From the NCBI GenBank assembly GCA_044892525.1, contig CM097885.1, positions 154,938,001 to 155,002,000 of the forward strand: a stretch of 64,000 nt of DNA, in the 5' to 3' direction. This document shows positions 41,769 to 44,700 of the stretch, piece by piece; position 1 is the first letter of the stretch; each line of letters starts with the position of its first letter. Origin of the DNA: Schmidtea polychroa. Lineage: Eukaryota. The position numbers were made by a program, and so were the translations under genes. Below the pieces are notes generated by a model. The model was given only the letters and a program-made list of their open reading frames with translations, did not search any database and was not told where the DNA came from.

Positions 41769-44700
41769 ATGATAGATGATGTAGTCATGATGTACGATAA
41801 AATAATATTACGGGCTGAAGACGATACCTCGTTAAGTGAAATGGGAATGTGGGATAATCATCAAATAATTAGAATATTGCCCATGGACGAATTCCGAACA
41901 AGAGATGTAACATACCAGAAAGAAATACGAGACAGGATGAAAACGCTATACCAAAAATCAGTAGAGATAATTGAAATTCATCAACAGTGGCTAAAAGAAA
42001 AAGAGCTTCAAGGAAAAATAAAGAAACCGAGTACTAGATCCTGCAGACGAACCCCATGGGAAAGGATGTGGAATGCGGAAAACAAAGAATGGGAAATCAG
42101 GAAAGGGATTTTCGTAGAAACAGACATTGGTGAGACAGAAAGTGAATCAGAAGAAGAGGAAGATGAACCTCCAAAATACGAAGAGGACGAAATAGAATCG
42201 ATATCGGACGACGAAAGCGAAACGGATGTTACGTCAGAAAGTGAAACCGAAATCAGGCATATTCATGCGATGAGAAAGAAGGAACGTGAATATGCTGATA
42301 TAGACGGGGAAGAGGCGAAAGAAGCGAGAGATCGAGAGGAGAGGGAAAGGTACAAACAACTAGGCGACATCTTAGAGACAGGGACAAAGAATCAAAAAAG
42401 GCAAACGATAGCACTAGCTAACTTCATTCTAAAAATATCGGACAATATCCAGTATCTGAGAGAGATAGTAAAGACTATAGAGGAATACCGACAATACAAC
42501 GAATGGTACCCGGAACAATTGGAACAAATCATTGGGAAGTGGCGAAACCATGAATGGTCACAAGACACCCAAGAAAGATATCGAATTCGAATTAAATACC
42601 CGGATAAAAATGTAGAGGAAGTAGAGGTACACCCAACCACAAAAATCAGAGAATTGAAAAAGAAACTAGCCTACGAAACCCCATTCCATCTACAACTACA
42701 AGGAAAATCATTAGATGACAATGTGGATGTCGGAATAACACCCATGAGATTAGGGGAGATCAATGTATTGACAATGGCAGAAACATTGGGAAAACCGATT
42801 AAAAGGAAGAGCAAATCCAGTAAACCTACGAAAGGTAGCCTGAGTACACCAAGTCCTGCTAAAGCGCCAAGCAAATCAAGCGAAACCGAGGAGATCGAGG
42901 AGATTATATTGGAAGACAGCGATGAAGGAGCTGGAGATAGATCACCAATTCTGGTAAGATGGCCGACAGGGGCGGAAATATGGACAACAAGCCAACCGTC
43001 AACTAGCTATCAGCAGCCAAATAAGCTAAGTATCGAGGAGATTATCGATAATACAACAGAAACCGAAACCGACGAACAATTCCAACGACAAAAAGGACCG
43101 ACGAAAGCAACACCAGAAGGTCAAACGGACAAAATAATAGACGAATGGAATGAATGGCTGAGAAACAACGACAGCTCATTGCCAAGAACAGATAATGAGA
43201 GAAACCCGAATTATGAAATGACCAGAGAAGCTGGAACAATGATGGAGAAACGGGCAAAAGGAAGACCCAAGAAGCAAGGAGAAAAACCAGAATTTAAAAC
43301 CAGAGAACAGTTGAAACAGGAACAAGGACAAGTCAGATTAGAGAAATTGGATAAAATAGTATGGGACCTAAAAGAAGCTCAACCAACAATCGAGAGAGGT
43401 GAAAAATGGATACGAGAGCTAGTAAAGGATATGTTAATAATAACAAACCTGCAATTGAGACGGTTATGGCAACGAAAAGTAGCAAGCGTAGATGCCAGAC
43501 AGCTATGGAATACAATATCCGGAATAATTCCGAAATTAATCAAAGAGAAGACAAAAACCACTAAAACCGATTGGGAAGAGACAAGAAGAGTAATTGAACA
43601 ATTAACTTTAAACGCAAACGACGACGAACATCATTTAGTAGTATTAACGTATCTAATGTACAATTTGATGGGATTAGCAGCAAGAAAAATACCTAACAAA
43701 CAATTCGCAAATCATGTAGAAATGACCGTTACAATCATTGAAAATACAATCGAACCACATATTATCCGTGCCGGTGGGTGGAAAAGACTCATACAAGCGC
43801 CACGAAAAAACGAGCAAGAGAGATCAATGCAAATTCGGTTGAAGAAATTGCTAAACGAGCTGGAATGGGAATTGCCATTGAAAGACCCAGCCAGCAGAAA
43901 AGCGTCGATTAATTCACTAATGATGACCATGATGATATGGATGCTATGCACAAGCGGAGCATCAGGGTTTACAATTTACGACTGCGACAATTCGATAATG
44001 GGAGAAAAATATTCCTTGAGGGATATAGAGGAATGTAGACAAGCATCTCCGAATAAATTGGATGTCGTGAAAAAGAAAGTCTCCTATCATGTATACCAAG
44101 AATCAGATTTTATTAGAACACAAGCAAGAGAATGCGTAGTATCAAAGAAGGTGTTGGCATATTACTGTGGACAATATTCGTATTCAACTCTCATATTACC
44201 TGGATTAGATAAAGAAATAGTACCTATACAACGGGAAGACTGTAAAGAGCTTTTTAGAACCGGAGCGATGAGAATCAGGGATGGAGTAACAATACACGGA
44301 CAAAGCGGGATGATTAAGACCGAAAGCATCTATGTAGCCGGACGAGTAAAATCAACCGATGGATCCTGTAACGGAGGCACATATACGATCAGAGGAGAGG
44401 TAATATCCGGGGTAGTAGTAATTGAGTCCTACACAGTGGAGTTGAAGGAATACGAAGCGCAATTCGACGCAAATAATTATCAAATGAAAACCAACCCAGC
44501 ATGCAGAGCCACGGAAAACGTGTGTAGAACGGGAATTTCGACTATAATATATGAAGCTAACACCCAAAAATGCCGACTCCAATTGTTAAAAAGTGCTCTA
44601 TTCAATGAAGTAAAAGGAGAAATTTATGAAAACGAAGATGACGATGAAGAGAATGGAAACGTAAGGATGCGAAATGGGAAACCAGTTCCACCATCCCCCA

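Follow-up and report, generated by a model that had tools for sequence, protein, structure and literature searches.

Planarian giant gypsy-like LTR retroelements, known as Burro or GYPSM1, are described in PMC6431247, which cites Jurka 2007 and Grohme et al. 2018. According to that source, the Burro polyprotein comprises a BCL2-like motif preceded by a ubiquitin-like one (given as Ubi2/SUMO-like), and an env lies in frame between BCL2 and the protease; a signal peptide and anchoring are not discussed there. Transcripts of BURRO1 are reported from tissues and increase when smedwi-2 is knocked down (PMC8532177).

Arrangements in which cytosolic sequence precedes the signal of an envelope protein are known from viruses. 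The HCV core protein is joined by an internal signal to the envelope protein E1 in one polyprotein, and core is set free when signal peptide peptidase cleaves what remains of that signal (PMC5712332). The Env leaders of MMTV (SP) and foamy virus (LP), 98–130 aa long and part of a separate Env, have a functional domain in the cytosol, located ahead of the hydrophobic core of the Env signal; SP is extracted by p97 (PMC8725593), whereas LP persists stably as a type II membrane protein (PMC7828637) that connects Env to Gag. Bcl-2-derived proteins without the BH1 signature are borne by poxviruses, as stand-alone DNA-virus genes with solved folds and measured partners. Vaccinia A52 and B14 have closed grooves and no anchor and act on NF-kB, M11L binds BH3 without the Arg-Asp salt bridge (both PMC3847314), and DPV022 lacks BH motifs yet binds BH3 peptides (PMC11209288).

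We analyzed a window of 64,000 nucleotides from Schmidtea polychroa, the term denoting this whole stretch of DNA. It holds an element spanning 31676–62081 (~30 kb) whose LTRs, each 4.05 kb long with TG...CA termini, are 99.6% alike (Table 1). An open frame of 2502 codons (41712–49220) carries the Bcl-2-like domain, the signal, Env and the enzymes, and Pfam matches run in the order Gag capsid, CCHC, ubiquitin-like (weak), Bcl-2 (weak), glycoprotein, protease, reverse transcriptase (RT), RNase H, integrase and ankyrin, with RING and TRAF matches in accessory frames. With a length of over 30 kb, multi-kb LTRs and the succession BCL2-like, env and PR-RT-RH-IN in one frame, the element has the published Burro layout, as judged by description and domain order. 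Both combine gag, CCHC, ubiquitin-like and BCL2-like parts and a mononegavirus-like env in one giant polyprotein, both carry ankyrin as well as TRAF and RING cargo, and the ubiquitin-like domain lies at the place of the Burro Ubi2/SUMO-like motif. The two differ in that TRAF is found here in a downstream accessory frame and in Burro within ORF1, and, unlike in Burro, BIR had no match in the 13 frames scanned with Pfam. The Bcl-2-like domain and its position before env are already known for Burro elements, so that their presence here adds little as a discovery. Dual use of the Env signal as a Bcl-2 anchor was not found in the literature searched, in which Grohme et al. 2018 was represented through PMC6431247 alone.

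Table 1. Coordinates of the element's features in the window.
Feature	Position	Strand	Details
5' LTR	31676..35728	+	TG...CA termini; target-site duplication ATAG
gag region with capsid plus zinc knuckles (CCHC)	38731..41711	+	Retrotrans_gag E 1e-11, zf-CCHC E 1.3e-10 (Pfam)
R[IV][NC][ML][ML] motif starts	near 40338, 40707, 48393, 49749, 51927		at or near domain junctions, including RNase H/integrase
Ubiquitin-like domain, upstream of Bcl-2-like domain	42585..42776	+	Pfam ubiquitin E 0.024, weak
AT-hook-like basic motif KGRPKK	43257..43274	+	
Putative Bcl-2-like domain, helical N-terminal half	43326..43565	+	outside profile and hhalign local matches
Bcl-2-like core	43566..43796	+	profile, Pfam, hhalign, Foldseek and column-shuffle comparisons
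BH1-equivalent ANDDEHHLVVL	43614-43646	+	
BH2-like EPHIIRAGGW	43752-43781	+	IIRAGGW at 43761-43781
Charged linker	43797..43913	+	holds most of SINSL (43905-43919)
Env internal signal peptide (predicted)	43914..43967	+	aligns to Pfam PF24664 from position 3
Signal hydrophobic core LMMTMMIWMLC	43917-43949		
Signal c-region TSGASG	43950-43967		
Env start FTIYDC	43968	+	
Env ectodomain, Monjiviricetes-type fusion glycoprotein, and TM helix	43968..45704	+	14 Cys; PF24664 E 5.5e-73
Env C-terminal transmembrane helix	45648-45704	+	hydropathy
Protease, reverse transcriptase, RNase H, integrase	46260..49220	+	Pfam matches; same frame as Bcl-2-like domain and Env
3' LTR	58029..62081	+	99.6% identical to 31676-35728

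The present copy is damaged. Its gag is split over two frames, with a frame change near 39525–39612, and ends at an in-frame stop (41709–41711); further in-frame stops lie at 49218–49220, where the end of the integrase is interrupted, and at 51207–51209. The family as a whole is abundant, the domain being matched at 93–100% identity in all 150 scored candidates (of 845). Long open frames are present in many copies, and in 29 of the 30 loci examined the frame stays open all the way between BH2 and the start of Env. Sequencing contigs over 36000–46500 showed no GT..AG joint into the Bcl-2/env region among the joints listed, and such contigs cannot prove absence. Elsewhere in the element, the LTRs contain open frames at 34429–35187 (252 codons) and 60909–61547 (212 codons), the 5' copy without a Pfam match; a tandem array with a 74-nt period occupies 37295–37854 in the 5' internal region, and a gag-linked frame contains an exact 70-nt duplication (39593–39662 and 40781–40850).

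An earlier note on this DNA had singled out IIRAGGW as BH2-like, and at the level of the family the resemblance rises above chance. The window sequence alone scored 15 bits against the Pfam Bcl-2 model (E 0.03–0.04; cut-off 31.4), and a single-sequence search of the PDB returned no relative, its sole match, ribosomal L17 (E 1.3), being due to chance. Word-index searches for homologues gave none, or P0012 only. A search of 1.84 billion representatives yielded 71 proteins, 7 of which have this domain ahead of Env; searching the genome with Pfam revealed a second element family with a Bcl-2-like domain. The family profile, an alignment of 12 element sequences, matched Bcl-xL at E 6.8e-7, and the best 60 rows listed were all Bcl-xL or Bcl-2. 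Every one of the 12 members matched Pfam Bcl-2, mostly weakly (best E 1.1e-6, ranging up to 0.5), and an hhalign comparison with the genome's own Bcl-2-like frames reached a probability of 95.4% over 71 columns. The core profile scored 30.9 bits; none of 200 column shuffles exceeded 12.0, and the window's family alone scored 13.1. All of these scores are confined to the C-terminal half of the domain; there, profile homology over the BH1-BH2 helices is significant, which we take as the mark of Bcl-2 descent, and these profile comparisons show Bcl-2 homology for that half. Relative to a sister subfamily, the Bcl-2 core has a dN of about 0.04 with saturated dS, and constraint extends likewise to the sequence upstream, to the linker and signal, and to Env; purifying selection spans the whole region and does not single out the Bcl-2-like domain.

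The domain has the C-terminal helices of Bcl-xL/Bcl-2 (PF00452) and the BH2-like W-x-x-x-GGW family pattern, and departs from them in having neither NWGR nor a BH3 pattern, in an H for the BH2 W in the window's family, and in its place inside a polyprotein, with a 45-aa linker to a hydrophobic segment. BH2 is well kept: GW is invariant in 12 of 12 rows, and a further G precedes it in at least 90%. The BH1 signature NWGR was found in 0 of the 11 rows with letters at that place, where the window shows DDEH; the position of the arginine is taken by K or R in 9 rows and by H in the window's family. The BH3 pattern L-x-x-h-[GAS]-D-x-h occurred in 0 of 12 rows, several of which lack the N-terminal part, and no Bak BH3 exon was found in the host loci examined.

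Structure prediction gave models of low confidence, with a pLDDT of 40 from the single sequence and a mean of 49 from the alignment, above 50 for residues 82–159 only and under 50 in the N-terminal half. Foldseek found nothing at E 0.001 with this model (best E 0.22), and 38 of the 40 rows listed belonged to the Bcl-2 family; VIA-align placed 8 Bcl-2 rows among 50 at Z 6.7–7.6, tied with unrelated bundles of up to 8.7. The ESM Atlas search returned nothing above 0.80, and the viral structure library gave no match with E under 0.001, with three or four viral Bcl-2 rows amid noise. In being Bcl-2-derived, borne by a mobile element and devoid of the BH1 signature, the domain resembles A52, B14, M11L and DPV022, and its loss of BH motifs is not decisive for function: some of these poxviral proteins bind BH3 all the same, and in others the groove is closed.

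Next, we considered the hydrophobic segment downstream of the domain. Its proposed role as the Env signal was supported by the alignment to the glycoprotein model and by its presence in relatives lacking the Bcl-2-like domain. The PF24664 model starts matching at 43914 (model position 3), i.e. on the segment itself, which combines a basic n-region, a short h-region and small residues at –3/–1 with a location at the N-terminus of the glycoprotein model. In the window, the core comprises 11 residues, and A and G occupy –3 and –1 of the predicted cut at 43967/43968. The spacing of ~35 aa after IIRAGGW given previously was too short, with 45 residues lying between the W and the hydrophobic core and 62 between the W and the predicted cut.

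To compare elements with and without the domain, 76 sequences were scanned, 30 of which had a hydrophobic stretch before an xxx[YF][DE]C Env start; removal of 2 duplicates and of 9 with under 140 upstream residues left 9 Bcl-2-bearing and 10 Bcl-2-less rows, all selected for having a hydrophobic segment. Median 19-residue hydropathy on the KD scale was 1.64 in the Bcl-2-bearing and 1.90 in the Bcl-2-less rows (p 0.21), and core length was 11 in both (p 0.56). Small residues at –3/–1 were present in 10/10 Bcl-2-less and 6/9 Bcl-2-bearing rows, the rule being broken at the aligned site in the other 3/9. In all nine elements bearing it, no other folded unit lay between the Bcl-2-like domain and the signal, an arrangement that would suit use as an anchor, and the distance from BH2 to the cut ranged from 46 to 76 aa among relatives, with a linker of variable length. 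Eight long sequences were examined, and in each the strongest hydrophobic helix was located downstream of the ectodomain. The occurrence of the same segment with and without the domain implies that it is Env's signal first, and on these alignments it is the signal that Env needs whether or not a Bcl-2-like domain precedes it.

The distribution of the domain was then placed on a tree of Env, computed from 15 elements, with 7 distant or short rows left out and two distant Bcl-2-less elements as the root; its backbone was weakly supported (93/89). The Bcl-2 label required 4 changes on this tree, and none of the 200 bootstrap trees brought this down to 1. Grouping the Bcl-2-bearing elements of the 15 rows in one clade was rejected (p-AU 0.005, quick tree, LG+G4). 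The nearest relative of the window, P0006, has the ubiquitin-like domain, the signal and Env, with no Bcl-2 match. The simplest history looks like one gain and at least three losses with the signal retained, although change counts cannot separate gain from loss; the Bcl-2-like domain would have been captured once ahead of a pre-existing signal and later lost several times.

The element's protease provides another potential route for releasing the domain. The motif R[IV][NC][ML][ML], defined after viewing the sequence, occurs 5 times in the polyprotein frames (0.024 expected) and is likely the recognition site of this protease. These five sites score 17–22; SINSL, which the earlier note had put forward as an optional release site, reaches 5.6 and ranks 33rd among 4637 windows. 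A loose pattern that includes SINSL occurred at chance level (17 vs 12.1 ± 3.3), and SINSL was not conserved in other families of the 12-row alignment. Judged by motif match and conservation, SINSL is a weak candidate for a protease site. A second signal-peptide-like segment lies at 51927–52022, or more narrowly 51927–52001, after integrase and ankyrin, and is itself preceded by the motif; this sequence hints that the end of the polyprotein gives rise to a further product, either secreted or membrane-bound.

Together, these data are best accommodated by a brief tether at the ER followed by release, with the domain damping cell death through a non-canonical surface, a reading that we hold tentatively and consider possible, if somewhat short of probable. 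The signal recognition particle (SRP) would read the internal signal, Env would pass into the ER lumen, and signal peptidase would cut at 43967/43968; the Env TM helix would then bring protease, RT and integrase back to the cytosol. The Bcl-2-like domain would thereby stay on the ER's cytosolic side, held by what is left of the signal, and this short remnant would probably be cleared by signal peptide peptidase or by extraction, as in HCV core and MMTV SP. The domain would likely damp host cell-death signalling. An anti-death role is suggested by knowledge of the Bcl-2 family only; the absence of NWGR and the loss, in the window's family, of the basic residue kept in the other 9 rows speak against it, and RING, TRAF and ankyrin, as other death/ubiquitin cargo of the same element, were counted in its favor. 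This arrangement preserves part of the earlier proposal, namely that a Bcl-2-derived domain precedes the Env signal and that the cut would leave it cytosolic on the remnant; a tail-anchored intermediate is to be expected because the topology yields one. The less favored part is a lasting, functional tail anchor, as the segment is neither longer nor more hydrophobic where the domain is present and persists where it is absent. In HCV, to which the earlier note had drawn an analogy, an internal signal is present as well, but signal peptide peptidase takes the anchor away (PMC5712332), and there is no homology between HCV core/E1 and the present element. With SP and LP the element shares the cytosolic domain ahead of the Env signal core; here, however, a captured host domain that continues on from Gag forms the leader.

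Permanent retention of the remnant, which would then anchor an anti-apoptotic Bcl-2-like protein by its tail in place of the anchor lost at capture, appears unlikely to us, even though a tethered intermediate would arise by default, the domain lies 46–76 aa before the cut in 9/9 elements, and the foamy virus leader is stable in the membrane (PMC7828637). We favor transient tethering because the core is short and unadapted: the segment in Bcl-2-bearing elements shows no adjustment and exists without the domain, and in the window its 19-residue hydropathy is 1.15, compared to 2.53 for the element's true Env helix. By itself, a short core does not speak against a lasting anchor because the tails of Bcl-2-like genes in Polinton-like elements of the same genome (L046/L049) are equally short (cores of 8–12 residues). 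Against a lasting anchor, the route would also end at the ER and not at mitochondria. A derivative with an env-pol deletion, in which the domain is fused in frame to another hydrophobic segment, would fit lasting anchorage as well, but as a deletion derivative in three copies it is weak evidence. If instead the fold is Bcl-2-derived with a closed groove, the domain could be a non-apoptotic adaptor in innate-immune/ubiquitin signalling that works with TRAF, RING and ankyrin, like A52/B14. The absent BH1 and BH3 signatures, the element's TRAF, RING and ankyrin cargo and the closed grooves, missing anchors and NF-kB targets of A52/B14 (PMC3847314, in part) are consistent with such a role, whereas DPV022 (PMC11209288, in part) and M11L bind BH3 despite lost motifs and BH2 is well kept here; we regard this adaptor role as doubtful.

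Flavivirus capsid is freed from its anchor by the viral protease, and the element's protease might similarly cut at SINSL to give a soluble Bcl-2-like protein. SINSL has I-N-x-hydrophobic in common with the likely protease motif, ranks as high as 33rd of 4637, and the motif also precedes the second signal-like segment; set against its low score, the chance-level frequency of the loose pattern, the missing conservation in other families and the overlap of the site with the start of the hydrophobic core, this makes release by the element's protease very improbable. Least probable of all, and in our estimation hardly credible, is a role in assembly, with an uncut Gag-to-signal precursor held at the ER beside its own Env and the domain acting as a spacer or Gag-Env adaptor. 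The family does encode Gag, domain, signal and Env as one polyprotein, and the link between Env and Gag made by the foamy virus leader peptide (PMC7828637, available part) offers a precedent, but the argument applies equally to Bcl-2-less relatives, leaves the retention of BH2 unexplained, and is at odds with likely protease motifs between Gag and the Bcl-2-like domain.

The broader proposition, that enveloped retroelements captured a host Bcl-2 before the Env signal and so obtained an ER-anchored death regulator made once per Env molecule, seems to us improbable as it stands. If true, a host tail anchor would have been replaced by a viral signal peptide and apoptosis control coupled one-to-one to envelope synthesis. 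Should the retroelement's Bcl-2 homologue block cell death in planarian tissue, with the Env signal as its anchor, a viral Bcl-2 would be produced from the polyprotein of an RNA element by signal peptidase, which would bear on the persistence of such elements in a highly regenerative animal.

The deletion derivative mentioned above belongs to the second element family and is represented by three near-identical copies (L067, G000:C2:128248500-128254000; L078; L079) among the 150 scored matches. In this type, gag and the Bcl-2-like domain are fused in frame, through an internal env-pol deletion, to the post-integrase region with its hydrophobic segment. We considered whether it constitutes a separate env-less family with an evolved anchor of its own and rejected this, the junction being that of an internal deletion derivative.

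Upstream of the Bcl-2-like domain, a KGRPKK-like motif occurs ~225–237 aa before the Env cut in the window, L062 and P0012. An AT-hook-like motif is present too in the Bcl-2-less P0001, P0002 and P0004, and Pfam AT_hook matched weakly in 3 of the 12 alignment rows; going by this motif, the pre-Env fragment could bind nucleic acid or act in the nucleus. One env-pol polyprotein of the same element class, P0013, carries a Flavobacteriaceae MAG label at its source, which likely reflects a contaminant in the source assembly.

Bcl-2-like genes also occur elsewhere in the genome. Many dispersed, near-identical copies (L046-L060, L091, L092) reside in Polinton/Maverick-like elements that hold an A32-type ATPase and a TBP-like gene, and some of these Bcl-2-like genes are apparently split by introns. 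At G000:C4:89.9-90.8 Mb, at least seven near-identical Bcl-2 genes (L031-L037) form a cluster, with NWGR intact and a BH3-like motif.
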